Part shown: one piece after another, positions 1-46,683 of the stretch
Numbering within the stretch: position 1 is the stretch's first letter
Layout of the letters: each line of letters begins with the position of its first letter
From: Planctomycetota bacterium
Lineage (GTDB): Bacteria; Planctomycetota; UBA11346
Reading direction: 5' to 3'
DNA: 48,264 bases
NCBI GenBank assembly: GCA_038231435.1
Contig: JBBRLJ010000038.1
Coordinates: 1-48,264 of the forward strand
The notes under the pieces: generated by a model
Told to the model about the DNA's origin: nothing
The model's database searches: none
What the model saw: only the letters and a program-made list of their open reading frames with translations
Translations under genes and position numbers: made by a program

Positions 1-180
1 ATACGCCATGCAGGCGATGACAGCCGCCTGGTCGAGTAGCGCAACGGAGGTGAATCGCCCTTCCCAGAAATGGCCGGTGACTTCGTCGTCGCGATTCGCA
101 CGTCGCGCGATCCGCTCCTTCATCACCTTCATGAACCAGGATAGGCTCGATAGGAGAACTGTGGGAAGCAGATGTCGCCA
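1..180 (-). pseudogene. 5'-truncated REP-associated (RAYT/Y1, IS200-superfamily) tyrosine transposase fragment, running off the window edge
   Basis: Not in the ORF track. Minus-strand translation of 150->1 gives SSLSWFMKVMKERIARRANRDDEVTGHFWEGRFTSVALLDQAAVIACMAY, matching the characteristic 'LSWFM..L.E.IAR.AN.ED...G.FWEGRF.S..LLD..A...CMAY(VDLNP)' block. An in-frame TAA lies just after the tRNA 3' end, so the N-terminal HUH half is missing. Confidence 0.8.
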
Positions 181-190
181 CCAACAACAC

Positions 191-222
191 GTCCTTGTGC
201 GCAACCACTGCAGCACAAGGAC
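191..222. repeat. 10-bp perfect inverted repeat (GTCCTTGTGC-N12-GCACAAGGAC) just downstream of the tRNA 3' end
   Basis: Arms at 191-200 and 213-222, 5 nt from the tRNA CCA; no poly-U tract. Confidence 0.8.
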
Positions 223-227
223 TTATC

Positions 228-304
228 TGGTACCCACTGAGGGACTCGAACCCCCGACCCCTACCATGTCAAGGTAATGCTCTAACCAACTGAGCTAAGC
301 GGGC
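228..304 (-). tRNA. trnV: tRNA-Val (anticodon GAC)
   Basis: Reverse complement GCCCGCTTAGCTCAGTTGGTTAGAGCATTACCTTGACATGGTAGGGGTCGGGGGTTCGAGTCCCTCAGTGGGTACCA: D-arm, anticodon loop TT-GAC-AT, T-loop TTCGAGT, encoded CCA. Confidence 0.97.
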
Positions 305-316
305 GTGACGCGCGGA

Positions 317-344
317 AGTGTGCGGCTTAGGAATGGTCGGTCAA
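317..344 (-). promoter_or_regulatory. Putative sigma70-type promoter of tRNA-Val
   Basis: Minus strand TTGACC-N16-CACACT, followed by a GC-rich discriminator-like TCCGCGCG shortly before the tRNA 5' end. Confidence 0.55.
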
Positions 345-747
345 CCATGCAGAGCCGGCCAGAACCCGAGCACCGACGACGTCCGTATGGACATCCATCA
401 CCGTGAACGGGGCGACGCCGGCCATCGTTGCTCCAGACCCACCGATGACAGCAACGGCGTAACGTTGGACTGGGTAGGCGCGGTGTCGCCGAGCACCGTG
501 GGGCCAATCCGCCCGGTGCTGCCGCGCCGCTCGCCGGGCAGCGGCGGATGTCCGCCGTGCGCATCCACCGTCGCCAGGCGGACCGTGGCGGATCACTGCT
601 CGACGAGTCGGAAGCCACGGGTGAAAGGGATGCTTCGTACGCTGCGGCCCACCGATGGATCCTCGTCTCGGCTTTCGGATTCACTCCCGTGCAGCACCTT
701 CATGCCTGAAGCCCTTGCCGCGTCCGATGCGAGCCCACGATCCTTCC

Positions 748-12416: not shown

Positions 12417-12706
12417 GGGACAACCTTCACTAGTCCATTGGGGTCAAAGCCGTTGGGCAGATGAGATCGACCGTGGACAGCGAAGCCGAACAGGAACGAG
12501 GCGACGCCCAGGCTTCGACAGCGGGGCGCTGATCGGCTCGCGGCTGCGCTTGTGACAGCATCTCCGAGGCCAAGTGCGTCTGCGCATGCTCCTGCTGTCA
12601 CACAGTCGCGTCCTCCTGTTCAGATTTGCCTGCCGCCGCTCTCGCGGCTAACCCATCGTCCTACCATCACTGCTCGCACGTCCGCACCCCTACGTTCAGA
12701 GGCTCC

Positions 12707-18370: not shown

Positions 18371-18402
18371 CGTCGCCCACGCGCGGAGCAGGCTGGACGG
18401 CC

Positions 18403-27839: not shown

Positions 27840-30800
27840 CTATTTTACGAACGTCACCACGCCGAAGTCGGCGGGCTTCCACTCTGGCTGCAGTCCACCG
27901 CCCCAGGTCATGGTCGCGGCGCGGCCCTTGCCGTCGTTGTCGTGGATCTGCATCGAGAACGCGAGCTTGCGCCCGAGCCCTGGCTGGAAACCGCCGAGAT
28001 CGCTGAACGGGATGCGCAATTCATAGATCCAACCTCCGGCGGATGCGTCGCCCTTGTCGTCCGTCTTGGCCTCCACCTTGGAGATGGCGAGCTCGTAGAT
28101 CGACGAGTCCCTCGCCAGCTGTCCGCTGCGCAAGCCGCCGGCGTGGGCCTCGGGGCGGAAGATGGTGGTGAGCCCGCTGCCGCCGCCCGGTTTCTGCGCC
28201 GACAGGAACAGCTCAAACGCCTTCTTGTCACCGTCGGGCGAGCGGTTGGTCGAGTCGAAGGCCAGCACCACGCTGTCGCCGTCGACCACGCTGGCATCGG
28301 CGCCATCCGCATGCGCCACATCGTCGCGCACCTGCACGGCAACATAGAGGTTGGCGTCATCCCACATCACGTAGCCGACGCCGCTGAGGTTCCGCGGCGT
28401 CCAGGTGTACGAGGGATCGCCCCCCTTGTTGCTCTCCTTGGTGCTCTCCTTGGTGAGAGTGAGCTGATTCGCGCCGATCAGCGGAATAGGGCAGGCGCGG
28501 TTCCACTCCTGGAGGTCGAGCTTGCCGTCGATCTTCGGCGCGGCCGAGGCGCGGTGGCATTCGGCCACGTAATCGGTGCCTTCGTACGCGGTGACGCGCA
28601 GATTATCGTAGTACACTGTCCCAGCGCCCTTGACCACCGGCGTGAACGACCCGGTGGCGATGGTATCGGGTACGGTGAGGTGGCTGGTGAACATCTGCCA
28701 GGAGGCGTTGTTCTCTCCGGCGGTGAACACCTGCACGTCGTAGAGGTTCTTGTTGGTGCCATCGGTCATGGTCAGCCCGATGTTCGAACCCGCGTGGATG
28801 CCCTGGTTCCACAACCACGCGGAATAGAGGTACGTGCCCCCCGGCGACAGCGGGATGGTCTGGTTGGTGGTGGACCATTCGGGGCAGTTGCTGAATTTCA
28901 TCACCTTGTCGCCCAGGCCGACGCCCAAGCCCACTGACGAGATCCACTCGCCCTTGCCGCTCCACGAGGCCGGGGCGCCCGGGTTCTTTGGATCGGCGTC
29001 CTCGAGCCCGCCGTTCTTCAACAGGTTGCCGAGCATGTCCGGCGAGATCACCGAGATCATCACCGGCTTGGTGATGGCGGGCAGCTTGTCCCAGGCGAAC
29101 GACACCTGCATCTGCACCGCATGTTCGCCGACCTTCGCATCCTTGGGCAGCGCCACCGGAATGATCGCGACCGTATCTTCTCCGGGAGCCAGCTCGAAGG
29201 GAACCGGAGCGATCGCCGGCCAGTCCTTGGGCCCGGCCAGGGTGAGTTTGCCAGCGATCTTGCGCTCATACGGATTTTTCAGGCTGACGTACAGCTCGGA
29301 CGATTCTCCGACCATCATGGTGGTGCGGAAATCCGCGGGGCGCCGGCCGCCGCGCGGGACCTTGCCCTTGGCCGACTGCAGCGCCGCCACCACGTAGGCC
29401 TTGAGCACGTCGAGATCACCGTTCTCGACGAAGGATCCGGTCGATGACAGGGCGAGCTCGGCATTGCCGCCCTTCGCGGCGATGGGGGACTCGTTGCCCT
29501 GGTAATCGGTCGCCACCAGTGATTCCGAACCGACGCGCAGCGCTGGCTTCTCCCCATCGCTTCCCGGCAGGAGCACCAGAACCGCCTTGCCGCCGCGATC
29601 GAAGAGCTCGAAGGTGCCCTTGCCTTCGGTGAAGGCGCCGAGCGGCTTGGCCTGGTGCAGCTTGGACACCAGCACCGCCAGGGTCGCCGCCGCAGGACGC
29701 GGGGTCATGTCGTCGAGCAGGTAGCTCCAGCCCCCGCACGGATCGGGCCAGCCGCCGAACCAGATGATGCGCTCCGCGCCGGCGGTGAGCTCGTCCACCC
29801 ACTGGCTCATCAGCCACTGGCTCTGGGTGGTGTTGGCGACCTCCTCGATCGCCGGCACGTTCCAGGCGTTCACGCCGCGCGCGCTCTCGTCGTCCCACAC
29901 CGCCGCTTTCGCGCAGCCTGCCGCGTCGAGATCCTGGCGCGCCTCGACGATGCCGTCTCCGGCCGAGTAATGGACGGGCAAGACGTCGACGTAGGCGCCG
30001 GTGCCGGATTTCAGCACCTGGTTGCGGAAGCTGCGCGGGAACAGGCCGCCAGCGAGCAGGAATTTCACTTTCGGATCCACCGCGCGCGCGGCCTCGGTGC
30101 CGGCCTTGCACAGCGCGAGGTAATTGCCGACCGGATCCTTGCCCTCACCGGGAACGATCTCGTTCAGCCACTCCCACGCCGACATGCGGCCCTTGTAGTG
30201 CGTGGTCGCCGCGGTCACGAACTCGCGCCACGCGTCGAGATCGCAATCGAAGGCCTGGAAGGCGACATTGCGTGCTGGGCCTTTCAGGGCCCACACCGGC
30301 GGATCCTGGATGCACAGCTCGGGCTCGATGCCGTGGGCGCGCATGATGTCCATCTGCTTGTCCAGGGTCTCGAAATGGAACACGCCGCGCGAGGGCTCGA
30401 GGCTGGCCCACGAGATGAAATTGCGGCACACCGTCAGCCCGAGGCGCTGGGCGACCGCGCTCGCCTGTTCCGCCTCGGCCAGATTCGTCAGCGTGAGCAG
30501 ATTGTGCATGCCGAAGGCCGTCGGCTTGCCCTTGGTTACTGCCTGCACGTCGGGGATGCGACAGATGGTAGTCGCGCGCTTCTCCCAACCTTCGACCTCG
30601 GCCTCGATGAGGATGATGCCGCGCGCCTCGGTCTTCAACGTGATCGGCACGTCCTGACCGTCCTTCTCGGAGGTGAAGGCGACCTGCTGGGTGTCGATCA
30701 CGTTCTTGCGCGCGTCGTACGCCTTCACCGCAAGCGTGTGCTTCGCGCCGGCGTCCTTGACGTTGCGCAGCTTCGCCACCACCACCACCGGCTCCTGGTA

Positions 30801-31319
30801 GGTGAAGCAGTTCCCGGGCTTCACGGTCGAGAGCTCGAAGAATCCCGAAGCGCGGGTGAACCACGGGCCCCCGGCGCGCACCTGCCACGGGAAAGCCTTG
30901 CCCGCGGCATCTGCGAATTGGCAGATCAGCAGCAGACCGTTGCGCGGCAGCGCCTTCGGCAGGGTGAAGGTGAAGGTATGGCTGCCGGGCCCGGCGGTGA
31001 CCGGGCAGGTGTCGCGCAGCTTGCCGCCGAAGTAATTGACGTGGTGGCGTTCCTTCTCGTAGGTGCCGTCCGGACAATCGACCCACGGGCCGACCGCCAT
31101 CAGTGCCAGGGTGGTGCCGCCATGGTCGTCGGCGGCGGCCAGGTCGTACGCCACCGTCACGCTCCAGGGCTCGCCCTCGACATAGGTCTTGTCGGCGATC
31201 GTCGGCGTGATGTCGATCCAGCTCTTGCTCGCCTGGCCCTGGCCGGGGGCATCCTCTGCCGCAGGCGATGAGGCGAACGCGAACGACCCGAGCAGGACGA
31301 AGAGGACGAGACGCGGCAT
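27840..31319 (-). CDS. Secreted clan GH-A glycoside hydrolase with NEW3-like, CBM4/9-like and CBM9-like modules
   Basis: RBS AGGAG; signal peptide; W..LEP.RG.F.F..LD, WEWLNE, VHY, VWDDES; NLLKNGGLE (CBM4-like); PKIDGKLD..WDDANLYVAVQVRDD..YELRIP (CBM9-like). Confidence 0.82.
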   Translation of the reverse strand: MPRLVLFVLLGSFAFASSPAAEDAPGQGQASKSWIDITPTIADKTYVEGEPWSVTVAYDLAAADDHGGTTLALMAVGPWVDCPDGTYEKERHHVNYFGGKLRDTCPVTAGPGSHTFTFTLPKALPRNGLLLICQFADAAGKAFPWQVRAGGPWFTRASGFFELSTVKPGNCFTYQEPVVVVAKLRNVKDAGAKHTLAVKAYDARKNVIDTQQVAFTSEKDGQDVPITLKTEARGIILIEAEVEGWEKRATTICRIPDVQAVTKGKPTAFGMHNLLTLTNLAEAEQASAVAQRLGLTVCRNFISWASLEPSRGVFHFETLDKQMDIMRAHGIEPELCIQDPPVWALKGPARNVAFQAFDCDLDAWREFVTAATTHYKGRMSAWEWLNEIVPGEGKDPVGNYLALCKAGTEAARAVDPKVKFLLAGGLFPRSFRNQVLKSGTGAYVDVLPVHYSAGDGIVEARQDLDAAGCAKAAVWDDESARGVNAWNVPAIEEVANTTQSQWLMSQWVDELTAGAERIIWFGGWPDPCGGWSYLLDDMTPRPAAATLAVLVSKLHQAKPLGAFTEGKGTFELFDRGGKAVLVLLPGSDGEKPALRVGSESLVATDYQGNESPIAAKGGNAELALSSTGSFVENGDLDVLKAYVVAALQSAKGKVPRGGRRPADFRTTMMVGESSELYVSLKNPYERKIAGKLTLAGPKDWPAIAPVPFELAPGEDTVAIIPVALPKDAKVGEHAVQMQVSFAWDKLPAITKPVMISVISPDMLGNLLKNGGLEDADPKNPGAPASWSGKGEWISSVGLGVGLGDKVMKFSNCPEWSTTNQTIPLSPGGTYLYSAWLWNQGIHAGSNIGLTMTDGTNKNLYDVQVFTAGENNASWQMFTSHLTVPDTIATGSFTPVVKGAGTVYYDNLRVTAYEGTDYVAECHRASAAPKIDGKLDLQEWNRACPIPLIGANQLTLTKESTKESNKGGDPSYTWTPRNLSGVGYVMWDDANLYVAVQVRDDVAHADGADASVVDGDSVVLAFDSTNRSPDGDKKAFELFLSAQKPGGGSGLTTIFRPEAHAGGLRSGQLARDSSIYELAISKVEAKTDDKGDASAGGWIYELRIPFSDLGGFQPGLGRKLAFSMQIHDNDGKGRAATMTWGGGLQPEWKPADFGVVTFVK

Positions 31320-31508
31320 GGGGGGCTCCTGGAAGGCTTGGTTATGCGTATAACGTGCGGTGATCCACTGGTGACCGAGGCATTTCGGCGAGGCGGGTGA
31401 GACGACCCCGCAACCGGTGACCGCTCTCGGCCTGGGGACTATGGGCAGATTTTTAGCCAAGACACTGCGAAGCCTGACGTTACACGACCCTGAAGGCGCC
31501 CGGCCTTA

Positions 31509-31536
31509 TTGACATAATCAATTAAAGAAGTATTTT
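31509..31536 (+). promoter_or_regulatory. Sigma70-type promoter of the tolC-adaptor-macB operon, with an embedded TAAT-CA-ATTA palindrome
   Basis: TTGACA-N16-TATTTT inside a conspicuous AT-rich island, about 105 nt upstream of the TolC-like gene. Confidence 0.65.
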
Positions 31537-31640: not shown

Positions 31641-33401
31641 ATGATGTCAGACCCCCAGGGGAAGACTTTGCCGCGCATCAGCTTGCGTTCCTTCGCCCAC
31701 CGCTTGGGCCGTCGATCGGCGGTACTCGCATTGTTGGCCTTGGCCGGTTGCGGAGAGCACCGTTCCGAGCCCCCGCCCACGTCCCCGACCATCAGCACGC
31801 CGCTAGCCCCGAAGACCCCCACCGCCGACCAGGATCACGTCCCGCCGCGCGCGCCGGCCCAGGATCTGAGCAGGATCTCGCGCGCCGAGTGCCTGCGCCT
31901 CGCGCTCTCGGCCAACCGCTCGTTCCGCATCAGGCACAGCGCCCTCGAGCGGGCCCGCCTCGGCCAAGCCATCGCCCAGTCCCAGGTCTACGCGCCCCGT
32001 CTGGACGCCAGCTACACCATGAGCAATGGCCTGGATTCCGGTTCAGGCAAGGTCTCGGCCACCGCGCCGCTCATCGGCTTCGACGTGCAGCCGTTCCTCT
32101 CGACCGGGTGGAACCAGGACGGCGATCTCCTCACCACGCGCGACGCCTACACCACCGCCTACGGCATCACCGTGTCGCGACGGCTGTTTTCGATCGCCGA
32201 GAACCTGCGCCAGCGCATGCCCATTTCCATCGCCGACAAGGAGTTCTACGTCGCGGCGAATGTGCTGGTGCTCGAGGGAAAGCAGCTCGAACTCGACACC
32301 ACCCGCGACTTCTTCAACATCCAGCGTACCGAGGCGCGCGAGCGCGTGCGCAGCCGACGCGTCCAAGATGCGCGCGATTTCCTCGCCAACGTTCAAGACA
32401 ACGTCGCCCACGGCTTCAAGGCGCCGGTCGAGGAACTCTACGCCACCATCGACCTGAACCAGGCCGAGGCGGATCTGCTCGACGAGCGCGCCAATGTGCA
32501 GAACGCCAAGGAGCAGCTGCTCAACCGTCTGGCCCAGCCGATCACCGCGGCCATGGACATCACTCCCGAGGACCTATCTGCGCCCTCTCCTGCCCCGCCA
32601 GACATCGACCACGACGTGGAGCGGGTCAAGGCGCACCACGAGGATCTCGGCAACCGCATCGCCGAGCTGCACCTCGAGGCCGACCAGCTGCGCGTGCAGC
32701 GCGATCTGCTGTGGCCGCAGGTGACCGCGGCGTTCACGGCCGAGAATCTACAGACCGGCAACCGCGCCTTCGACGACAATCTCGGGGACCAGAACGTCTA
32801 TGCGCTGACCCTCACCTACGCGCTGCCTCTCGATCTCAACCGCGGCGACCGCGCGCGCTACCAGCAGATGCGCGACGAGATCGAGGAGAAGACCCTCCAG
32901 CTTCGCCAGGCGGAATCGGATCTCGAGACCCGCCTGCGCTCCACGCACCGCCGCATCCTGCAGCTCGCCTCGACCGTCGATCTCGCGGCGAAACGCATGG
33001 CTGCCGAGGAGGCGAGGATGCGCGTCACCCTCACCCGCTACAAGGCCGGCGCTATCGACAACCTCGAGGTGACGCGCGCCAAGCAGGATCTCGACAACGC
33101 CGAGATCTCGCTGCTGAACGCGCGCATCGATCAGGCGATCAGCGCCGTCGACTACCGTTCGACCCTGCCCGCGCAGATGGAGGGCCCGCCAGAGCAAGAC
33201 CGTCCAGCGGTGCTCGACGCGCGCCACGCCACCGAAGGCGCTGCCGCCCCGGACGCGCGGCCCACGCCGCGCGAGGCTCCGCTACCACCAGTTCCGTCGC
33301 CTCCCGGACCAGCTGATCTCGCACCGGCGCCGGCGGATCCGGCTCAGGCCCCTGCTCCGGCCCCGCCGCTGCCGCCAGCCGACGAGGGCGCGGGGAAGTG
33401 A
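31641..33401 (+). CDS. TolC-family outer membrane factor (lipoprotein) with Pro-rich termini
   Basis: Lipobox LAGC; ALSANRS, two OEP-like repeats (..LWPQVTA..LTYALPL.., RYKAGAIDNLEV..AKQDL..AE); start uncertain (31566-31644). Confidence 0.85.
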   Translation: MMSDPQGKTLPRISLRSFAHRLGRRSAVLALLALAGCGEHRSEPPPTSPTISTPLAPKTPTADQDHVPPRAPAQDLSRISRAECLRLALSANRSFRIRHSALERARLGQAIAQSQVYAPRLDASYTMSNGLDSGSGKVSATAPLIGFDVQPFLSTGWNQDGDLLTTRDAYTTAYGITVSRRLFSIAENLRQRMPISIADKEFYVAANVLVLEGKQLELDTTRDFFNIQRTEARERVRSRRVQDARDFLANVQDNVAHGFKAPVEELYATIDLNQAEADLLDERANVQNAKEQLLNRLAQPITAAMDITPEDLSAPSPAPPDIDHDVERVKAHHEDLGNRIAELHLEADQLRVQRDLLWPQVTAAFTAENLQTGNRAFDDNLGDQNVYALTLTYALPLDLNRGDRARYQQMRDEIEEKTLQLRQAESDLETRLRSTHRRILQLASTVDLAAKRMAAEEARMRVTLTRYKAGAIDNLEVTRAKQDLDNAEISLLNARIDQAISAVDYRSTLPAQMEGPPEQDRPAVLDARHATEGAAAPDARPTPREAPLPPVPSPPGPADLAPAPADPAQAPAPAPPLPPADEGAGK

Positions 33402-35959
33402 ACCGTTCGCTGCGCATGCTCGCGCTGGCCGCAGCCGCGCTGCTGCCCGGCGGCTGCGGCGACCAGGCCGCTGCTGGCGCCGCGCGCCTGGACCTCTCGG
33501 CCCATGCCGAACCGGTCGAGATGGTCCCGATCGCGCTCGAGGGCAAGGTCGACAACCGCCAGCCGATCGGACACGCGGTGAAGGTGGCGTGGATCCCGTT
33601 GAAGTCGCTGTTTCCGGAAGGCCAGGCGATCGCCGAGGGCGACGAACTCGCCCAGCTCGATTCGCATCTCGCCGAGCTGTGGCGCGAGACCGCCGCGCGC
33701 GACATCCGCCAGCGCCGCGAGGAGCAGTCGCGCGACCACCTGCGCGCCGAATCGCAGGTCTCCGAGCTCGGCGCCGCCAAGCGCGAGCTCGAGGCGCAGC
33801 GCGACGCCTACGCCGCCGAGATCGCCGCGACCAAGGCGAGCGACGCGAACAGCCTGTCGATCGTGCGCCTCGAATTGGCCGAGGCCGAACGCAGGTTCCA
33901 TCTCGCCGACGCGACGTTCGACCGCGTCAACGCCCTCGCCGGCGCCGGCCGTGCCAGCGACCTGTCGTTGCGCCAGGCGCGCGACAAGCGCGCGCTCGCC
34001 GAAGCTGCGGTGGTGGTGCCGCGGCTGCGTCTGGAGCTGGTGGAGAAGTACACCGGCTATGTCACCCGGCGCCGGCTCGAACTAGCGCTCGCCGGCGTCA
34101 ACGAGGACATCGGCGACGTCGAGACCGGCCACGGCGTGGCCGGGGAGATCGCCGCGCTCGAGGAGGCGCAGCGGCACAACGAGCTGATCGCCGCGGGCGA
34201 CCTGCGCGCGCTCGAGCGCGACAATGCCCTGCGCCAAGACATCATCGATCATCCCACGATCCCTGCCACCGCCACCGGCCTGGTCCGTTACAGCGACGCG
34301 AGCGTGCGCCCGGGCGCGAAGCTGCCCGCGTCGTTCTTCGCGTACGTGCTCGACTCCAAGGAGCTGGTGGTGGCATTCAAGCTGCCCGAACGCTTCCGCG
34401 GCCTTGTCCAACCCTGGTCCGAGACCCATCCCCGGCTGGGGCTGGTGCGGCTCCATGTCGATGCCTTGCCGAACCAGCCAGGCGACGGCGCGATCACCGG
34501 ACGCATCCTCTCTATCGCCGCCGTTCCCGAATCGGACAAGGGCTCGAACGGCCGTTCGTTCTCGTGCGCGATCCGCCTCGACAGCGCCGCGCCCGAGCTG
34601 CGCCCAGGCATGCGCGCGCGCTGCGAGCTGCTGGTGCCGGCGCCTCCCGCCGCGGTGGCGGTACCGACCTGGTGCGTGGCCGATGCGCGCAAGCCCGAGG
34701 TGGTGCTCCCTGATGGCAGCCGGCGCGCGATCACCGGCTATCCGGTAGGGCACGACTTCCTGGTCACCGCCGGCCTGGCCGCGGGCGAGCGCGTGCTCGC
34801 GTCCTCTGCCGGCGCCGCCACCGGCGTGCTGCGGGTGAGCGGGGTGGTGGAGCCGACGCGCTTCCAGCCGGTGAAGCTATCGAGCTGGAACTGGCAGCTG
34901 AAGGAGGTGGTCCCCGACGGCACGCTGGTCGAGAAGGACGCCATCATCGCCCGCCTGAGCAAATCCGTGCGCTGGCAGGACGCCGGGCTCTCCGGCTTCG
35001 CCTACGAGTACGGACTGGCCAGCGCGCGGGCGCGCTTCGCCGCCGCGCGCATCACCGCCGGCAAGGATCTCGCCAAGGAGCTCCTGACCTGGCACAAAGC
35101 GGCGATCGCGGTGGAGCGCGCGCGGCTCGAACGCCTGGTGACGCGCTTCTCGGGCAACGACGAGCAGGAAGCGAACGCCCAGGTGGACCTGACGCGCGCC
35201 GGGATCGCGGCGGAACAGGCCGAGCACGCGGCCGCGGAGCTCGCCGATCCGGCGATGCTCGAATCGCTGTCGTTGAACGAACGCCACCAGCGCGAGGTGA
35301 GCGTGGCCCAGGCCCGGCTCGCGCGCCAGCGCGCCGACGTGCAGCGCGTCGCCACCCTGCGCGCGCGCGATTGGCTGGCGGTGACGGTGGCCGAGGAAGC
35401 GGAGCGCTCGAGCGAGGAGGCGGCCACCGACGCGCGCGAGAGCTACAGCGCGGCCCGCGCCGCGTACGAGGCGGCCCTGGCGCGGGCGACCCTGCGCTTC
35501 AATGACGATCTCGAGGATGGCAAGCTGCGCGGCGACCGCGCCGCGTCGATCGACCAGGAGGTGCTGGCTCCCACCGCCGGGCGCGTCTACCGGACCCGCC
35601 AGTGGAACGGCAAGCCCACCGAGATCGGCGACGAGATCGGTACCATGGAACCATTCCGCATCCCGCTCGGATCGGTGCGGCATTTCGTGATCGAGGTGCC
35701 GGCGCGGCTCGACGGCCACTTCAAGCTCGGGCAGGACATCCCCTTCACCAGTCCCACGCTCGGCGCGCGGCCGCGCGCCGGTACGGTCACGAGGATCTCG
35801 CCGTTCGTGGCCGATGCCACCGGGGGCAACGACGAACTGGCCACGCGCGGCACCATCGGGGTGCCGTCGAAGGTGTTCCTGATGACCATCTCCTTCGATC
35901 TCGCCGAGGATGAACAGGTGCAGGCGCCACCTGGGACGACGGCCTATGTCGACCTGTAG
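33398..35959 (+). CDS. Tandem double periplasmic adaptor (MFP-MFP) protein, lipoprotein-like N-terminus
   Basis: GTGA overlap with the tolC stop. Module 1: PEGQAIAEGDELAQLD, ~200-aa coil, IPATATGLV, LRPGMRARC, GLAAGERVL. Module 2: VPDGTLVEKDAIIARL, coil, VLAPTAGRVY, PPGTTAYV. Confidence 0.8.
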   Translation: MNRSLRMLALAAAALLPGGCGDQAAAGAARLDLSAHAEPVEMVPIALEGKVDNRQPIGHAVKVAWIPLKSLFPEGQAIAEGDELAQLDSHLAELWRETAARDIRQRREEQSRDHLRAESQVSELGAAKRELEAQRDAYAAEIAATKASDANSLSIVRLELAEAERRFHLADATFDRVNALAGAGRASDLSLRQARDKRALAEAAVVVPRLRLELVEKYTGYVTRRRLELALAGVNEDIGDVETGHGVAGEIAALEEAQRHNELIAAGDLRALERDNALRQDIIDHPTIPATATGLVRYSDASVRPGAKLPASFFAYVLDSKELVVAFKLPERFRGLVQPWSETHPRLGLVRLHVDALPNQPGDGAITGRILSIAAVPESDKGSNGRSFSCAIRLDSAAPELRPGMRARCELLVPAPPAAVAVPTWCVADARKPEVVLPDGSRRAITGYPVGHDFLVTAGLAAGERVLASSAGAATGVLRVSGVVEPTRFQPVKLSSWNWQLKEVVPDGTLVEKDAIIARLSKSVRWQDAGLSGFAYEYGLASARARFAAARITAGKDLAKELLTWHKAAIAVERARLERLVTRFSGNDEQEANAQVDLTRAGIAAEQAEHAAAELADPAMLESLSLNERHQREVSVAQARLARQRADVQRVATLRARDWLAVTVAEEAERSSEEAATDARESYSAARAAYEAALARATLRFNDDLEDGKLRGDRAASIDQEVLAPTAGRVYRTRQWNGKPTEIGDEIGTMEPFRIPLGSVRHFVIEVPARLDGHFKLGQDIPFTSPTLGARPRAGTVTRISPFVADATGGNDELATRGTIGVPSKVFLMTISFDLAEDEQVQAPPGTTAYVDL

Positions 35960-36062
35960 TGCACGCCACCCACACGCGGGCCCTGCCCGCGAGGGCGGCC
36001 ATGGGGGGCTACGGCCCCGCATGAACGCGCGCCGCGCTGCCCCCTTGGAAGCAGGGAGAAGG

Positions 36063-39000
36063 ATGGACTGGGAGGCGCGCGCCGATGGCGCGACGCGCTC
36101 GATCCCATGGCTGATTCGTCTCGTTGGTCACGCCGTTGGTCCCGTAGTCGCAGCTCTGCTCGCGATCGGAAGCGTGGCGAGAGCCGAGGATGCGGTGTAT
36201 GTGGTACCCGAAGGGGAGCAGACGGCGACGTTCAGCTTCTGGGGGGATGTGCAGTCGGATCGGGCTCGCTCGGTCGCGATCCAGAGCGATGCGAAGGATC
36301 TGGTCATCGATCGGGTGTGTCCGGCAGGAGCGCAGCTCCTGGCCGGGGATCCGATCATCGTCCTCGACGCCAAGATGGTCGAACAGCGCCTGCCCCAACT
36401 GCGCTCGGAGCTGGTGGCCGCCGAGCGTACGCTGGAGCTGCATTCGTTGCGGCTCGAGCAGGACATGGAGCAGCTGCTCGATGAACGGCTGCGCCTGCGC
36501 GGCGATCTCGATTCCTGCCGCGCGGCGCTCGCCACCGCGACGGTGATCGACACGCGCAAGGTCGCCGCGCTCAAGGGCGCGCTCGATCTCGCCGAGCAGA
36601 ACGCGGCCAGCGCGGCGCGCGCCGCCGAGGCGGCGCGGATCCAGCACGAGGCAGGACAGCTGTCGGACGCCGATTTCGACGCGGCACTCGACGCCGCCGC
36701 ACTCGCGCGCATCGACACGCTCTCGCCAAAGGCGGAGTGGATGATCGCCTCGGGTGGCGTCGAGTCGCTGCCGATCGCCAAGCTGCGCCTGCGCGAGGCC
36801 CAGCTGGTCACGCAGCTCGGCCTCGGCGCGAACGGCGTGCCCGATCCGACGCTCGCCATCAACAGCCGCATCGCCGCTGTCGCCAGCCAGCAGCACCGCC
36901 AGCGTGAGGCCGACACGCTCGAGCGCGACGCAGCCGCCACGCGGCTGCACGAATCGCTGCGCGACGCGCGCGACCATACTCCCGTCTCTTCGCTCGAGAT
37001 CTCGCCCCGGCCGGGCGCGCCGGCGGCGGCGGTGATGCTCAAGATCGCCTTTGCGCCCGCGGGCACTCCGGTTGCGGAAGGATTCGCGCTCGACGACGGC
37101 GCGGTATTCTCGGGAGCGCGCGGCTACGGCTGGGCCGAGGATGCCACCGGCCTGATGGTCGTGCGCGTGGGTACCGACACCAAGTCAGACGCCAAACCGG
37201 ATCCGATGCAGGATCCGAAGCAGAACGGCAAGGCCGCGGGCAAGCCGCCGCGCACGCTCGCGCTCGTCGAGGGGCTCGCTACCTGGCGCGTCGCCCTCGC
37301 CGACGGACCCTACCATCTCAAGGCCACCTTCGGGGATACTGTGGATTGGAGCGGGGCCCTCGCGCACGTTTCCGGAAGGATGACGTCCAATGGCGTCGGC
37401 ACCGCGGCGAAGGTCGGAGGCAGGCCCGATGCCGATGGCAGTGCTGACTCCAAGGCAGACTCCAAGGCAGACTCCAAGGCAGATAGGAAGGCCGGCACGG
37501 ATGGCGACGCATTTGGTGGAAGCGCCAGGCAAGGAGCGTTCTTCGTCTCCAAGCGTGTCGATGCCGGAGCCGCGGTGGTGGTCGAGATCGATGTCGACGT
37601 GGTCGGCGGCCGTCTCGAGGTCGCTTTCGGCGATCGCATCGGCAAGGCCTATCGCGCCCCGCTCGCCGGCGTGGTGACGCTGCGCGATTGGGTCCATCCC
37701 GGCGGCCGGCCATGGAACGTCGGCGCGAAGCTCGGCTTCTTCATCGATCCGACCCAGTTGACCGTGCACGCCCGGGTGCACCAGGACGACGCCCCGCTGC
37801 TGAAGGCCGCCGGCGCGGCCGCCCCTCCCGAGATGCCGACCGCGGAAGCCGGCGCCACCGCGCTGGTTGCCGCGGCCCAGGCCCGGCTCGCCACCGCCGA
37901 GGTCTCGTTGCAGGTGGCCACCGGCGCGACTGCGCGCGGAACGGTATCGGCCATCAGCAACCAGCCAGCGGCGCTGTCGCGCGCGCCGATGGGCTGGTCC
38001 GAATCGGTGAATGATCTCGATCGCATGGCCAACGAACTCGACATCGCCGTCGACCGGGCCGAGGTCGGCAGGCTGCGTTATGGCGCCGACGTGCTCTGCA
38101 GCTGCGCCTTGAAGCTTCCCGCCGGTCTGCGCGCGGTGCCGTCGCAGCTGGTGGTCTCGACCGGCAACCAGCGCTGCGTCACCGTCGAGGGCCGCAAGGA
38201 ACCGCTCGAAGTGGTCGGCTTCCGCGTCGGCGAGCAGTTCATCGCCTGCCGCGGCATTGCCGCCGGCATGCGCCTGCTCACACCGCATGCCACCGCGGCG
38301 CCAAAACCCGAGCTGATGTATGGCGGCACTGTGGCGGCAGCCCTGCGCACTCCGGTGGCGCTTGGCGGATTCTGGGGCCGCATCAAGGAGATGGTGCCCG
38401 ACGGCTCGATGGTCACCAGCGGCCAGGTCATCGTCTCGCTCTACAATCCGATGATCGACGAGCAGAAGGTGGCGATCGAGCGTGATCGCCGCAAGGCCAA
38501 CCAGGCGTATCTGCTCGCCGCCGAGAGCCGCCGCGTCAAGGGCGTGCAGGCCGCGATCGAGCAGAGCGGTCGCGCGGCCACCGCGCGCGCCGCGCGCCTG
38601 GCCCTCGAGGAGGCGCTGGCGATCCCCGCGCTCGCACGCGCGCAGGCCGACGCCGAATCCGACAAGTCGCGCATCACCGCGCGCTCGAAGGAGCGCCTGC
38701 TCGCCGGATCCGAGGCCCTCGCCTCGCGTGATCCGGCGCGCTACGCCGCCGCCAAGGCCGATTCCGGCCAGGCGGGCGTCTCGGCGCGGCAGCACGAACT
38801 GCAGCGTGTCGCGGCGCTGCGCGCCACCGACTGGTTGAAGGTCTGCGCGGCTGAATACGCGTGGATCGACGCCATCGCCGAGCTCGGCGCGCGCGAGGAC
38901 GACGATCAGCTCCTGCGCGTGGAAGAGCGGGTGTCGGGCATGACCGCGAAGCTCGATCTCGAACGCGCCCTGACCGGCAGCCACCAGCAGGCGGAGTTTG

Positions 39001-39431
39001 ACCGCGTGAAGGACCTGCACGCGCCAGCGTCGGGCCGCCTCTTCTACCTGATGGGCTTCAACGACCAGACGCGCTCGCGGGCCAAGTTCCAGAAAGATTT
39101 CCCGGTGTGGAGCGGTTTCCCGATCGCCGAGATCCTCGACCTCTCGAAGCTGTCGCTGCGCGCCGAGCTCCCAGAGCCCTTGTACCGGCGCATGGCGGTG
39201 GGCGGCCACGCCGCGATCGTGTTCCCCCAGTTCAACAACCGTCGCATCGAAGCCGCGATCTCCTCCATCGGCCGGCTGATCGCGCCGCCCAAGGACCACC
39301 GCGACCAGGGCGCGAGCGACCACGCGGTCGCGCGCGACGGCGTGTTCACCATCACCGTCGACTTCGTGCCGCCACCGGACCTCGCCCAGATCCTGGTTCC
39401 CGGCACCAAAGGCAACCTGGTCCTGCAATGA
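36063..39431 (+). CDS. Tandem double periplasmic adaptor with an inserted galactose-binding-like beta-sandwich domain
   Basis: Signal-like ..ALLAIGSVARA|ED. Module 1: PAGAQLLAGDPIIVLD, coil, [insert], YRAPLAGVV, GIAAGMRLL. Module 2: VPDGSMVTSGQVIVSL, coil, LHAPASGRLFY, PIAEILDLSKL, LVPGTKG. Start could be 36021. Confidence 0.78.
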   Translation: MDWEARADGATRSIPWLIRLVGHAVGPVVAALLAIGSVARAEDAVYVVPEGEQTATFSFWGDVQSDRARSVAIQSDAKDLVIDRVCPAGAQLLAGDPIIVLDAKMVEQRLPQLRSELVAAERTLELHSLRLEQDMEQLLDERLRLRGDLDSCRAALATATVIDTRKVAALKGALDLAEQNAASAARAAEAARIQHEAGQLSDADFDAALDAAALARIDTLSPKAEWMIASGGVESLPIAKLRLREAQLVTQLGLGANGVPDPTLAINSRIAAVASQQHRQREADTLERDAAATRLHESLRDARDHTPVSSLEISPRPGAPAAAVMLKIAFAPAGTPVAEGFALDDGAVFSGARGYGWAEDATGLMVVRVGTDTKSDAKPDPMQDPKQNGKAAGKPPRTLALVEGLATWRVALADGPYHLKATFGDTVDWSGALAHVSGRMTSNGVGTAAKVGGRPDADGSADSKADSKADSKADRKAGTDGDAFGGSARQGAFFVSKRVDAGAAVVVEIDVDVVGGRLEVAFGDRIGKAYRAPLAGVVTLRDWVHPGGRPWNVGAKLGFFIDPTQLTVHARVHQDDAPLLKAAGAAAPPEMPTAEAGATALVAAAQARLATAEVSLQVATGATARGTVSAISNQPAALSRAPMGWSESVNDLDRMANELDIAVDRAEVGRLRYGADVLCSCALKLPAGLRAVPSQLVVSTGNQRCVTVEGRKEPLEVVGFRVGEQFIACRGIAAGMRLLTPHATAAPKPELMYGGTVAAALRTPVALGGFWGRIKEMVPDGSMVTSGQVIVSLYNPMIDEQKVAIERDRRKANQAYLLAAESRRVKGVQAAIEQSGRAATARAARLALEEALAIPALARAQADAESDKSRITARSKERLLAGSEALASRDPARYAAAKADSGQAGVSARQHELQRVAALRATDWLKVCAAEYAWIDAIAELGAREDDDQLLRVEERVSGMTAKLDLERALTGSHQQAEFDRVKDLHAPASGRLFYLMGFNDQTRSRAKFQKDFPVWSGFPIAEILDLSKLSLRAELPEPLYRRMAVGGHAAIVFPQFNNRRIEAAISSIGRLIAPPKDHRDQGASDHAVARDGVFTITVDFVPPPDLAQILVPGTKGNLVLQ
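37446..37493. repeat. In-frame 12-bp tandem repeat (GACTCCAAGGCA x3 + 1 variant)
   Basis: Encodes DSKA-DSKA-DSKA-DRKA inside the inserted domain. Confidence 0.95.
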
Positions 39432-41506
39432 CACCGCTCCGCTCTGCGCATCGACGCCGCTTCCTGATCCTCGCCTGCGCGGCCGGCGCGGCGGTCATCC
39501 TGCTGATCACGCTGCGCCGGCGCGATCCCCCTTCCGAATATTTCCTGCGCGAGACCGTGCACCGCGGCGAGATCCACCGCGTGCTACGCGAGGCCGGAAC
39601 CCTGGTGCCTCGCGAAGCCGTGCTGGTGAAATGCCCGTTCAACGCGGCGCTGCAATTCATCGTCGACGACGGCACCTGGATCGACAAGGGCGGCAAACTG
39701 TTCACGCTCACCGACGACGAGGAGCTCAAGCGCGTCGCCGACGACCGCAGCCGGCTGCTCGGCCTGCGTCAAGAGCTGCGCCTGGCGCGCATGCGCCGCG
39801 CCAACGCCGGCCAGACCGAGGACCGCAAGCTGGCGGCCGCCAAACGCGCGCGCGAGCTCGAAGGCGTGCGCTACCGCATCATCACCGCCACCCCGGCCGG
39901 AGGCGGCGAGCTGATCCGGCTGCACGAGAAGCTGCTGCCACACGAGGCCGAGACCGCAAAGGTGCGCCTGCGCTATGAGGACGCGCAGGACTCCTACCAG
40001 ACCGCTTTCGATGCGCATCTGGACGCACTCGACGCGCTGCAAGCCAGCCGCGATTCGGCGTTGCGCGCGCAAGCGCGCGTAGACGAGCTGTCGGCGGCGG
40101 CGGCAACCGCGCCCGAGAACCTCAAGGCCGAGGAGCGCGAGCAGCGCGAACAGGCGCTCAAGGGCCTGGCGACCGCCCGCGCCGAACTCGATGCCCTGCA
40201 GACGGCGATACCCGAGCTGGCGAAGAAGCTCATCGCCGCGCGCGAGTCGCGCGACCGGGCAAAGGAGCCGCGCGACCAGGCCGCGCAGGAGCTCGCGGCG
40301 CGCGAGGCCGACGAGCGCGAGGATCTCATCCGCATCGAGATCGAGAAGCGCGGCGTGCAGGCCGAACTGCTGCGACTCGATGAGGAGTCGAAACGGATCG
40401 GCCTGGCCGAATCCGAGCGTAAGCGCGACCAGGGCAGGCTCGGCTTCGCCGATGGCGCCCTGAGCCGCTCGGCGCTCGACGACCTCGAGGCCCAGGCCGA
40501 GTCCGCGAAGAGCCAGCTCGGCATCGTCACTGAGAAGCTGGCGATCGCCGAGCGCCCGGCCGCCCCCGAAGCGCTCGCCGAGGCGAAGATGAAGCTCGAC
40601 ATCGCGGACGCTCGCGCCGAGCGCGCCCAGCTCGCCCACGACCGCGCGCTCGCCATCCTCGACAAGGAGGTCGACGTGCTGGTGGCGCGCGTCGACGGCC
40701 TGGGCGGCGCGATCGATCAGCGCAGCTCGCGCTTCCCGGCGCTGATCGAATCCAACATCGATTTTGCGCGCAAGGAGCTCGCCGCGCTCGAGGAGGATGC
40801 CCGTGAAGGGGGCACCGCCGAAGATGCGAAGCGCCGCGCCGAGGTCGAAGCCGAGATCGCGCGCATGGTTGAGCAGCTCGCGACCGCCAAGGAGGATCCG
40901 CCGAACAGCGCCAAGGCGCCGGTCAGCGGCATCGTCAAGGTGAAGTGGGATGACGAGGGCGGGCGACCGAAGCAGGGCGGCGACAAGGTCTATGAAGAGG
41001 ACGTGCTGATCGAGATCTTCCCCCCTGAGAACCTCGAGGTGGTCGCCAAGGTCAACGAGGCGAACATCTCGCTGCTCGCCGTGGGCATGCCCGCCGAGGT
41101 CGAATTCCCGTCGCTCGGCAACGGCCGCTGCTCAGGCGAGATATACCGCGTCTCCGGCGTCGGCCGCGACAAGTTCGCCGACTACAATGACGGCTGGAAC
41201 AAGGCTTCGTTCGCCGACGTCACGCAGTACGAAGTGCGCTGCCGCCTCGGCGAGACCCGCGCGGATTTCCGCCAGGGCATGACCGCCATGGTCAGCGTGC
41301 GCCTCGATGCGCGCAAGGACGCGCTGTGGCTGCCCCTCGGGGCGGTCACCCGCGCCGGCGACGCCTGGACGGCGCTGGTCGGCGACGACCGTTCGCAGAG
41401 CGTCAGGACCATCACCGGCGAGCCCTATGGCGACGATGCGTTCATCGTCGCCGGCGGCCTGGCCGAGGGCGACACCGTGCTGTGCCGCCGGACGAGGAAC
41501 CGATGA
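39428..41506 (+). CDS. MacA-like periplasmic adaptor with an extra-long (~400 aa) coiled coil
   Basis: ATGA overlap; N-terminal TM; V.RGEI...LREAGTL.P, VDDGTWIDKGGKLF; coil; AKAPVSGIV, AKVNEANI..LAVGM, FRQGMTA.V, ALWLPLGAV, GLAEGDTV. Confidence 0.87.
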   Translation: MTPLRSAHRRRFLILACAAGAAVILLITLRRRDPPSEYFLRETVHRGEIHRVLREAGTLVPREAVLVKCPFNAALQFIVDDGTWIDKGGKLFTLTDDEELKRVADDRSRLLGLRQELRLARMRRANAGQTEDRKLAAAKRARELEGVRYRIITATPAGGGELIRLHEKLLPHEAETAKVRLRYEDAQDSYQTAFDAHLDALDALQASRDSALRAQARVDELSAAAATAPENLKAEEREQREQALKGLATARAELDALQTAIPELAKKLIAARESRDRAKEPRDQAAQELAAREADEREDLIRIEIEKRGVQAELLRLDEESKRIGLAESERKRDQGRLGFADGALSRSALDDLEAQAESAKSQLGIVTEKLAIAERPAAPEALAEAKMKLDIADARAERAQLAHDRALAILDKEVDVLVARVDGLGGAIDQRSSRFPALIESNIDFARKELAALEEDAREGGTAEDAKRRAEVEAEIARMVEQLATAKEDPPNSAKAPVSGIVKVKWDDEGGRPKQGGDKVYEEDVLIEIFPPENLEVVAKVNEANISLLAVGMPAEVEFPSLGNGRCSGEIYRVSGVGRDKFADYNDGWNKASFADVTQYEVRCRLGETRADFRQGMTAMVSVRLDARKDALWLPLGAVTRAGDAWTALVGDDRSQSVRTITGEPYGDDAFIVAGGLAEGDTVLCRRTRNR

Positions 41507-43506
41507 CTGCGCTGATCGAGATCAAGGGCCTCGAGCGCGCCTACGTCATGGGCGATACCGTGGTGCACGCGCTGCGCGGCGTCGACCTGACCATCGACGA
41601 GGGCGAGTTCGTGGCCATCGTCGGCCCCTCGGGCAGCGGCAAGACCACGCTGATGTACGTGCTCGGTTGCCTCGACCAGCCCACCGGCGGCAGCTACCGG
41701 CTCGCCGGCCACGAGATCTCGACACTCGGGGACCGCGAGCTGTCGCGTATCCGCAATCGTGAGATCGGCTACGTGTTCCAGCAGTACAACCTGCTGCCCT
41801 CGTTGTCGGTGGTGGACAACATCAGTCTCGGCCAGGTCTATGCCGGCGAGTCGCGCCAGCGCCGGCACGACTCCGGCGTCGCGCTCGCTACCCAGCTCGG
41901 GCTCGCCAGCCGCACCGCGCACACGCCACGCGAGCTCTCGGGCGGGCAGATGCAACGCGTCGCGATCGCGCGCGGACTCGCCTGCCGGCCACATCTGATC
42001 CTCGCCGACGAGCCGACCGGAAACCTCGACACCAGGACCGGCGCCGAGATCATGCAGGTCTTCAAGGACCTCAACGCCCAGGGCCACACCGTGGTGCTGG
42101 TCACGCACGACCAGGGCGTCGCGGCCCAAGCCAAGCGCGTGGTGCGCATCGTCGACGGCTCGATCGTCAGCGACGAGAGGGTTGCATCCGATGCGGCGGG
42201 TGCGGTGGCCGCGCCCGCCGTGGGCCGGGTCGATGTACCCGAGCGCGATGCCGGATCGCGCGGGCGCGTGCTCGGCGCCGATGTCCTGCGCATCGCCCTG
42301 CACGAAGGCCTGCTCGCGCACAAGCTGCGCAGCTTCCTGACCATGCTCGGCATCATCTTCGGCATCGCGGCGGTGATCGCGATGACCGCGATCACCGAGG
42401 GCGGCAAGCGCCGCCAGCTCGAGCAGCTGCGCCAGATCGGCATGAATAACATCCAGGTCCGCGGCCTCGAACTCGCGGGCACCCGCCTGATGCGCGTGCG
42501 CCGCGCCAACCCGTTCGGCGTCACCGTCGGCGATCTCGAGGCCATCCGCCGCTACGTGCCCGGCATCGAAGAAGCCACGGCATGGAAGGGCATCAAGGCC
42601 GAGGTACGCCTGGGCGACAAGGCGATCGACGACGCCAATACCCTTGGCGTCACCGGCGCCTTCGAGTCGGTGGTCAACTTCCACGTCGGACGCGGGCGCT
42701 TCCTCGATGCGCGCGACGAGACCGCGCGCGCACGCGTATGCGCTATCGGCGAAGACGTGGCGAAGGGACTCGGGCTGGGCGAGGACGCCTGCGGCAAGAC
42801 CGTGGTGATCGGCGACGAGCCGTTCACCGTCGTCGGGGTGATGGGCAAGAAGGCCTTCACCGAGAGCGACATCGCCGATCTCGCCATCACCAACCGCAAC
42901 CACGACGTCTACCTGCCGTACGCCAGCCTACGCGCCTATTTCCGCAAGGACGAACGCGACAGCCAGCTCGACGCGATCTCGCTGCGCATGTCCTCGGACG
43001 AACGCCTGCTCGAGCAGTCGCTGGCGATCAAGCGCATCGTCGGCGACCTGCACAACGACGCGGGAGACTTCGCGGTGGCGGTGCCGCTGGAAAGCATGCG
43101 CCAGGCGCAGCGCACCAAGGAGATCTTCAACGTCATCATCATCGTCATCGCCGCCATCTCGCTGATCGTCGGCGGCATCGGCATCATGAACATCATGCTC
43201 GCGAATGTCACCGAGCGCACCCGCGAGATCGGCATCCGCCGCGCCGTGGGCGCGAGCCGCAACGACGTGCTGCGCCAGTTCCTGGCCGAGGCGCTGCTGA
43301 TCTCGCTGTTCGGCGGCCTGCTCGGCGTGGCGCTGGGCCTTGGAGCGGGGTTCCTGATTGAGGCGGTGTTCGGATTCGCGGTGGCCTTCAACCTGTGGAT
43401 CATGCTGCTGGCGACGGTGACGTCGGTGGCGATCGGGGTGGGGTTCGGGATCTATCCGGCTTGGCTCGCGGCGGAGATGAATCCGGTCGAGGCATTGAGG
43501 AACTGA
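41503..43506 (+). CDS. macB: MacB-type ABC transporter (fused ATPase + FtsX/MacB permease)
   Basis: GPSGSGKT, LSGGQMQRVAIAR, ILADEPTGNLD, VTHD; HKLRSFLTMLGIIFG, ISLIVGGIGIMNIML..VTERTREIGIRRAVGA, FGIYPA..AA.MNPVEALR. Confidence 0.95.
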   Translation: MTALIEIKGLERAYVMGDTVVHALRGVDLTIDEGEFVAIVGPSGSGKTTLMYVLGCLDQPTGGSYRLAGHEISTLGDRELSRIRNREIGYVFQQYNLLPSLSVVDNISLGQVYAGESRQRRHDSGVALATQLGLASRTAHTPRELSGGQMQRVAIARGLACRPHLILADEPTGNLDTRTGAEIMQVFKDLNAQGHTVVLVTHDQGVAAQAKRVVRIVDGSIVSDERVASDAAGAVAAPAVGRVDVPERDAGSRGRVLGADVLRIALHEGLLAHKLRSFLTMLGIIFGIAAVIAMTAITEGGKRRQLEQLRQIGMNNIQVRGLELAGTRLMRVRRANPFGVTVGDLEAIRRYVPGIEEATAWKGIKAEVRLGDKAIDDANTLGVTGAFESVVNFHVGRGRFLDARDETARARVCAIGEDVAKGLGLGEDACGKTVVIGDEPFTVVGVMGKKAFTESDIADLAITNRNHDVYLPYASLRAYFRKDERDSQLDAISLRMSSDERLLEQSLAIKRIVGDLHNDAGDFAVAVPLESMRQAQRTKEIFNVIIIVIAAISLIVGGIGIMNIMLANVTERTREIGIRRAVGASRNDVLRQFLAEALLISLFGGLLGVALGLGAGFLIEAVFGFAVAFNLWIMLLATVTSVAIGVGFGIYPAWLAAEMNPVEALRN

Positions 43507-46556: not shown

Positions 46557-46683
46557 GGAGGGGATCATCGGCGCCGCCGCTGAAGCGTCCACCATCGCGG
46601 ATGGCACGGCTCCAGCGCCAACGATCGACCCGGCTGAGCTTGAGTCCCCCTCCTGGGGGATAGAGTCGGACCAGGAGACGGAT

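Follow-up and report, generated by a model that had tools for sequence, protein, structure and literature searches.

Why would a MacB-type pump carry five adaptor modules? The question is raised by an operon in a 48,264-nucleotide stretch of DNA from a Planctomycetota bacterium (GTDB lineage UBA11346; GenBank assembly GCA_038231435.1, contig JBBRLJ010000038.1, positions 1 to 48,264; hereafter the window). Five co-oriented + strand open reading frames (ORFs), all open, span 31641..43506 and encode an outer membrane factor (OMF), three adaptors (A, B and C) of the membrane fusion protein (MFP) type and MacB, in this order. We found that A and B each contain two MFP modules and C one, as the original prediction, made from the sequence alone, had proposed, and that related operons carry one or three. 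Our preferred answer, to which we assign a probability of about 0.45, is that the modules form one mixed six-membered tube, A1-A2-C-B1-B2-C (A:B:C = 1:1:2), between the MacB dimer and the TolC-like trimer. The features are listed below (aa, amino acids; MP, membrane-proximal; AF2, AlphaFold2; X, Y and Z are the adaptor positions of related operons).

31509..31536, + strand: sigma-70-like promoter match, TTGACA-16-TATTTT (consensus match only)
31641..33401, + strand: OMF, 586 aa, TolC/OEP family (Pfam OEP E 6e-24 in two stretches; sequence)
33398..35959, + strand: adaptor A, 853 aa, tandem MFP with a lipobox-like Cys20 (profile-profile comparison, AF2 model)
33479..34813, + strand: module A1, sister of B1, with MP domain, beta-barrel, lipoyl domain and a 94/97-residue hairpin (AF2 model, tree)
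34814..35956, + strand: module A2, sister of B2, with beta-barrel, lipoyl domain and a 93/94-residue hairpin, without MP domain (AF2 model, profiles)
36063..39431, + strand: adaptor B, 1122 aa, tandem MFP with a cleavable-type signal, whole-length paralogue of A (hhalign, tree)
36984..37634, + strand: beta-sandwich insert in B1, YxiM/AGA-type galactose-binding-like, with low-complexity loops (profiles)
38298..39428, + strand: module B2, without MP domain and with a degenerate tip (profiles, tip counts)
39428..41506, + strand: adaptor C (Z position), 692 aa, single MFP module including the MP domain (MacA is the best PDB hit, E 1e-15; AF2)
39893..40348, + strand: predicted side hairpin of C, residues 156-307, in the ascending arm behind a conserved PxGG turn (insertion relative to Z orthologues; AF2)
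40736..40894, + strand: short basal hairpin of C, residues 437-489, topologically equivalent in position to the B insert (alignment, AF2)
41503..43506, + strand: MacB-type (type VII) ABC transporter, 667 aa (Pfam/NCBIfam, motifs, hydropathy)

The operon and its five modules

Judged from its sequence, the operon is a MacB or type VII tripartite pump, and it is not E. coli MacAB-TolC sensu stricto. The likeness to MacAB-TolC that had been noted earlier was borne out by a TolC-family OMF and MFP adaptors co-encoded with a MacB whose nucleotide-binding domain (NBD) is fused and has the Walker A, LSGGQ signature, Walker B and H-loop motifs intact (at 41, 145, 166 and 200). MacB matched ABC_tran (E 5e-31), MacB_PCD (E 1.6e-34) and FtsX (E 6e-22) in Pfam, and showed four transmembrane (TM) segments (four hydropathy peaks), the first two of which, TM1 and TM2, flank a large periplasmic core domain. 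The strict assignment fails on the three adaptor genes, the five modules and the MacB match to PRK10535 (E 5e-143), which at 477.7 bits lies under the equivalog cut-off of 966. The OMF carries a lipoprotein-type signal at Cys37 and a Pro-rich C-terminal tail. The predicted 4-nucleotide stop/start overlaps (GTGA/ATGA) were found at 33398, 39428 and 41503, as was the TTGACA site; two promoter-like sites were detected, compared with 0.1 in shuffled sequences. For B, an in-frame ATG at 35946, corresponding to the start used in several relatives, would overlap the end of A (35946-35959) and give 1161 aa, and the downstream ATG at 36063 is preceded by a strong purine-rich site.

Pfam and NCBIfam scans returned weak MFP hits, mostly one for each adaptor; since library models score these proteins only weakly, family alignments were built for the adaptors. 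Profile-profile comparison then showed the duplicated modules, all five being mutually homologous (E 1e-10 to 1e-36). The closest pairs were A1 with B1 (E 1e-33) and A2 with B2 (E 1e-36, both by hhalign), each supported at 99 in a tree of 112 rows. A and B thus arose from a single tandem gene by duplication; their local identity is about 28%. In its AF2 model (pLDDT 85.9, pTM 0.63), A has two lipoyl/hairpin/beta-barrel modules joined by a linker of about 11 residues, and the second module stops at the beta-barrel. The nested beta-barrel/lipoyl/alpha-hairpin fold was seen in AF2 models for A and C, which matched BesA, MacA and EmrA with Z of 11-15, and for B by profile homology only. The MP domain is present in A1, B1 and C and missing from A2 and B2, so that the expectation of duplicated MP domains had to be corrected; it is the lipoyl domain and barrel that are duplicated in A. 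Gln-Ala repeats occur in the B1-B2 linker of one genus (L034, L040 and L015).

The modules also differ at their tips and anchors. A1 is of the RLS type (R176/L180/S187 in the window), with R in 28, L in 37 and S in 21 of 46 sequences, and B1 has R in 19, L in 23 and S in 24 of 47. Among the other tips, C retains only G (24/30) and S (21/30), A2 retains S (42/46) and B2 is degenerate. The motif is named in a figure legend of PMC8277102. About 12 residues separate the lipobox of A from the MP domain. A strict pattern, which misses the window's own A, detects the lipobox in 32 of 46 A sequences, and it is clearly missing in several orthologues. AcrA and MexA are anchored at the inner membrane through lipid. 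By analogy, the Cys at the MP end of A would be an inner-membrane anchor, and the earlier idea that anchor type marks an outer-membrane tier finds no support in its position or its distribution.

The insert in B1 is located between the helix that descends and the lipoyl domain's second half, i.e., at the hairpin base, and has a size of about 140-220 aa. Of 50 aligned B rows, 49 contain it, and the remaining row is truncated. Its profile matched PDB 2O14 (YxiM) at E 1.3e-4, and 2 of 16 members matched PF21254 weakly (best E 0.004; atlas lead 0.80). The N-terminal galactose-binding-like domain of YxiM (2O14, PF21254) aligns with the insert at RGxGW, LPDG-Y-V-LGD and the terminal GxL strands. The YxiM domain is attached to an esterase or agarase, whereas the galactose-binding-like insert in B, likened to it by sequence, sits inside an efflux adaptor. 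In L034, L040 and L015, of one genus, the insert also contains tandem low-complexity pentapeptide repeats.

The hairpins were of nearly uniform length. The lipoyl-to-lipoyl span was 194-198 residues in every one- and three-module adaptor measured, including 196 in 12 of 12 ordinary single-adaptor Planctomycetota MacA homologues, and the median spans were 200 for A1, 199 for A2, 192 for B2 and 210 for B1 without its insert; the value of 195 for C in this comparison is partly fixed by the chosen cut of its insert. Because one- and three-module adaptors have equal spans, the long hairpin is a trait of the subfamily as a whole and no gain of the five-module operon. This observation lends no support to the suggestion that the operon bridges an unusually wide periplasm. 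All five tips would lie about 90 residues (about 140 Å) above the lipoyl ring, with about 93 residues per arm. Structural matches of the A model included compact helical bundles aligned over both hairpins (8r5s over 107..703, root-mean-square deviation (rmsd) 7.1; F-BAR domains over 218..717), which suggests that the A1 and A2 hairpins may pack side by side.

Adaptor C has an N-terminal TM helix (residues 11-29, by hydropathy) and a confident AF2 model (pLDDT 89.5). Across 26 orthologues its lipoyl-to-lipoyl span is 386-436 aa, in line with the coil of about 400 aa noted earlier, but it is not a single long hairpin: the extra residues, about 150 in the ascending arm and about 50 at the base compared with Z orthologues, are predicted to fold back. 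The model helices are 97-153, 159-225, 234-307 and 310-341, followed by 347-374, 380-433, 437-459 and 464-489. The side hairpin, made of 159-225 and 234-307, matches simple hairpins such as the dynein stalk and the Smc coil; residues 155-346 resemble free-standing hairpins, and 234-344 are straight (Smc coil, rmsd 7.4). From helix lengths, the tip of C would stand 87-98 residues high in both arrangements that close, level with A. A hairpin of doubled length was also considered and rejected, as the tip motif lies at 343 and not at the mid-span position 296, and an apex at 226 would leave a net 55 residues and not close.

The tandem genes are not assembly or frameshift artefacts, as is clear from the 46 A-type sequences of near-full length that remain after clustering at 50% and from nine further genomes found in a first search. 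Among 1.84 billion cluster representatives, a profile search found 144 proteins at E<=1e-30, including full-length A-type proteins, B-type proteins of about 1000-1095 aa and a third tandem class of about 850-875 aa. Besides, the module junctions of both A and B were bridged by contigs of a second sample, possibly from the same study (X3 records 18 and 21). Position 35751 of the window, inside A2, is G here and T in all three aligned runs. Among A and B loci, the only split homologue was B of one metagenome-assembled genome (MAG), G010, broken exactly at the B1/B2 boundary (L013:12790-12841) with a GTGA overlap and a second piece without signal peptide. This break is probably a one-base frameshift; another MAG (L033) has a split MacB.

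The gene order was also conserved, as the original prediction required. Among 48 genomes of the family (own included), many of which are fragmented MAGs, A matched 17, B 20 and C 21. In other genomes OMF and A were adjacent in 16 (G017 among them), A and B in 13, B and C in 17, and C and MacB in 17, and no violation of the order was found among the fetched family loci. All five genes lay on one contig in six other genomes (G002, G010, G020, G052, G059 and G062), with B broken in G010 and MacB cut by the contig end in G062. When the A profile was run over 401 Planctomycetota genomes, full-length matches were confined to family f1 (nine genomes including its own) and matches of any kind occurred in 18 of 401; two candidates per genome were scored, so that these counts are no proof of absence elsewhere. 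An automated related-locus search with A in genomes and C in metagenomes gave no match. Named homologues were Planctomycetota, including P0008 and P0158 by their NCBI labels, in line with the planctomycete origin suggested earlier; one C homologue was labelled Kiritimatiellae.

The series of one, three and five modules

The 401 Planctomycetota genomes were also searched with an alignment of the third tandem class, and the 29 distinct loci that we read were top profile hits and not a random sample. Sixteen of them had one module, a MacB-like neighbour being detected for 11 of these, and 13 had three (G007, G019, G031, G091, G419; G142, G216; G079, G092, G231, G247, G316, G383), whereas none had two or four. 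The three-module loci comprised six with three separate genes, five with fused X-Y and a separate Z, and two with a separate X and fused Y-Z, one of the latter lying in a single-contig genome. The fusion linkers are short, polar and free of TM segments. Two genomes of the same family as the window, G007 and G019 (L058, L069), lack the five-module operon and have a tandem, single adaptor, MacB and OMF operon with the OMF gene last.

In a tree of 31 modules, sequences grouped by position: X (92/95), Y (65/93) and Z (91/95). Joining T1 with the first Y-Z module was rejected by the approximately unbiased (AU) test (p 0.02), and the X-Y and Y-Z fusions are therefore different events. In the 112-row tree, made without the inserts of B1 and C, C was sister to Z (97) within the Z-position group (96). 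In a tree of MacB permeases, the five-module and X-Y-fused types were sisters (99/98), and the single-adaptor MacBs stood apart from every multi-adaptor one (100/99); L078 gave no row. The simplest history that we infer from these sequences is a triplication, followed by X-Y fusion and then by duplication of the fused gene.

Arrangement of the adaptors

Passages of PMC5985334 describe three MacA per MacB monomer at non-equivalent sites in MacAB-TolC, the Sabre subdomain being contacted by the MP domains of two and the Porter subdomain by that of the third. Because there are three MacA positions for each MacB monomer, three orthologous adaptors fit a ring of 2x(XYZ), and the five modules fit A1-A2-C-B1-B2-C. 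The existence of both X-Y and Y-Z fusions points to a single ring, since only a ring places all module bases side by side: both fusions can exist in it, but only one of them in a base-to-base/tip-to-tip stack and none in a head-to-tail stack. The co-occurrence of A and B, adjacent in 13 other genomes, is also in favor of the single mixed ring. We consider it probable that the adaptors form a side-by-side hetero-ring of one kind or another, either a single asymmetric ring or 2x(A+C) and 2x(B+C) rings; the hetero-oligomeric adaptor proposed earlier is supported. Its other form, an end-to-end relay in which A3, B3 and C6 rings are stacked from the outer to the inner membrane across a very wide periplasm, appears quite improbable. 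A trimer of tandem adaptors would indeed make a pseudo-hexamer fitting a trimeric OMF, the RLS tip is best kept in A1, and the three anchors differ (lipobox, cleavable signal and TM helix). However, no linear stack fits both fusions found in relatives, the hairpins of A appear packed together, B1 keeps an RLS-like tip too, anchor types are shuffled among X, Y and Z in relatives, several A orthologues lack the Cys, and we know of no base-to-base or tip-to-base contact between MFPs.

Two further arrangements share the components in another way. A and B may be alternatives, such that 2x(A+C) pumps coexist with 2x(B+C) ones or the two mix statistically, with C, MacB and OMF in common and a glycan-related specificity for B. 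We regard this as unlikely, although it would suit whole-gene paralogues, a symmetric MacB homodimer that presents identical sites to both, a sister system with one tandem gene plus Z, and the B of G010 broken at its module boundary. Against it, both genes are kept together in every sufficiently long locus despite their divergence, and the G010 break resembles a one-base frameshift of a MAG; another MAG (L033) has a split MacB. Separate homo-rings (A3, B3 or C6), each working with the same MacB and OMF in the manner of engineered tandem AcrA or TriA-TriB fusions, seem distinctly improbable. The A profile does match PDB 6VEJ, a 695-aa two-MFP chain which we take to be a TriA-TriB fusion, and this entry was not among the 50 structural matches listed for the A model. 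Portions of PMC13328181 report that tandem-fusion AcrA works and that TriA and TriB form a 3+3 ring. Homo-rings, however, leave the recurring count of three orthologous modules and the Y-Z fusions unexplained; A3 or B3 would show only three MP domains, with three-fold symmetry, to a two-fold MacB, and six copies of the C side hairpin would probably crowd one ring.

Several observations weigh against the single mixed tube. Two of its six positions would lack an MP domain, while in E. coli all six MacA MP domains touch MacB (as given in part of PMC5985334), and A2, B2 and C do not have canonical RLS tips. The 1:1:2 ratio, like the ring stoichiometry as a whole, is what we infer from genes, and would require unequal translation from a single operon. 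With regard to the trees, a clade of second modules (T2+g2b) was not rejected by the AU test (p 0.29), A2+B2 sits on a long branch apart from the Y modules in the 112-row tree, and the Y group is weakly bootstrapped (65). Two X-like genes (L076:392-2038 and L077:4363-5907) had no second adaptor or MacB detected on the fetched contig. The hairpin geometry was derived from DSSP and structural-match summaries of predicted models. The B insert is only weakly assigned as sugar-binding (E 1e-4), and the 59 of 113 candidate flanking ORFs that were scanned belonged to unrelated families, with no cargo gene or glycan cluster conserved among them.

If the mixed tube is correct, an ancestral MacA would have triplicated to X, Y and Z, one for each position on the MacB monomer, and after fusion of X with Y and duplication to A and B the two ring halves would differ, with C filling both Z positions. 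The ring would be tethered to the inner membrane by the TM helix of C and by lipidated A, and the RLS-type tips of A1 and B1 would be the main contacts to the OMF. MacB expels periplasmic substrates by mechanotransmission (PMC5985334, in part). Likewise, as the MacB periplasmic domains close, driven by ATP, a periplasmic substrate would be pushed upwards through a helical tube of about 14 nm, decorated on its exterior by the B sugar-binding-like domain, which could contact glycans, and by the extra hairpins of C, which may act as struts. The B insert would be the sole hint at the cargo, also at the large cargo suggested earlier, and our best guess, an envelope glycoconjugate or glycolipid, is held with considerable doubt. 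A wider proposal, which we think rather unlikely in full, is that one lineage of MacB pumps solved its two-fold/three-fold symmetry mismatch by giving each adaptor position its own gene, and that the family of the window then evolved a fully asymmetric, glycan-recognising or glycan-gated ring that has one carbohydrate-binding position and exports envelope glycoconjugates in Planctomycetota.

Neighbouring genes and known systems

Other genes of the window were recorded as follows. Two secreted-type proteins of about 1200 aa, each with a CBM9-like domain at its end, are encoded at 27840-31460 (- strand) and 12626-16138 (+ strand). The former is divergent from the operon and also showed weak GH10/GH42 matches; no counterpart of it was found among the flanking genes scanned in relatives (59 of 113 candidate ORFs). 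A PBP1c-like transglycosylase/transpeptidase gene (16181-19189, - strand) lies beside a 2160-aa ORF (18403-24885, - strand); the typical partner of such a gene is an alpha-2-macroglobulin-like protein. An HflX GTPase ORF (46360-48099, + strand) has an open N-terminal extension of about 170 aa ahead of its Pfam domains. In two other genomes, MlaE/ABC(/MlaD) genes were observed beside the operon, on opposite sides (L019:9860-11382 and L023:15496-18924), probably by chance.

In MacAB-TolC, the six adaptors are identical, yet have to fill three different roles on either half of the two-fold motor and to meet a three-fold channel, which makes the roles hard to dissect. The 1-3-5 series offers position-specific adaptors, natural fusions that fix the order of neighbours, and positions that can each be mutated alone. 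With its modules side by side in one mixed tube, as is likely, the operon would be a natural model of how a two-part motor is coupled to an exit channel of three parts, and closed single-contig or near-closed three-adaptor genomes (G216 and G079) provide a practical entry point. It also indicates that adaptors can carry accessory sugar-binding-like domains. What is new here is the series with its two fusion types, the predicted fold-back of C and the sugar-binding-like insert. No natural tandem, triple or five-module MacB adaptors were found in the literature searched, whose coverage did not extend to subscription journals, and, as the original prediction had supposed, no characterised equivalent was found there.

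E. coli MacAB-TolC (MacA6:MacB2:TolC3; PDB 5NIK and 9QGY) shares the MacB with fused NBD, four TM segments and periplasmic core domain, the OEP-family OMF, and the MP/barrel/lipoyl/hairpin anatomy, MacA being the best PDB sequence hit of C. In contrast to one MacA, the operon has five distinct modules on three genes with natural tandem fusions, two modules without MP domain, a sugar-binding-like insert, extra hairpins on C, and hairpin arms of about 90 residues; those of MacA are about half as long. Similarly, TriABC-OpmH of Pseudomonas aeruginosa (PDB 6VEJ, whose fused TriA-TriB chain is presumably engineered) uses unlike adaptors, and the operon may resemble it in the non-equivalence of its adaptors. 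It is driven by a resistance-nodulation-division (RND) motor, is three-fold and has two MFP types, whereas we find a two-fold ABC dimer, three position types and natural fusions; with an ABC/MacB motor, the operon falls outside the TriABC-like class of an RND motor with two essential MFPs. Hetero-oligomeric adaptor rings have probably evolved separately in ABC pumps. For TriABC-OpmH, sections of PMC4338810 and PMC13328181 state that both non-identical MFPs are required and propose a trimer of dimers or a hetero-hexamer; parts of PMC13328181, PMC4338810 and PMC8277102 present tandem adaptors as products of engineering. EmrA (Aquifex, PDB 4TKO) and other MP-less adaptors resemble A2 and B2 in the long hairpin and the missing MP domain (stated for EmrA in a section of PMC4338810), and differ from this operon in having a major facilitator superfamily (MFS) motor and a single-gene homohexamer. 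Finally, the three-adaptor Planctomycetota MacB operons share the subfamily with 196-residue hairpins, a Z orthologous to C and, in the X-Y-fused type, the sister MacB; they differ in having three modules, no duplicated tandem gene, a Z without the extra hairpins of C, and an OMF gene that is last or non-adjacent.

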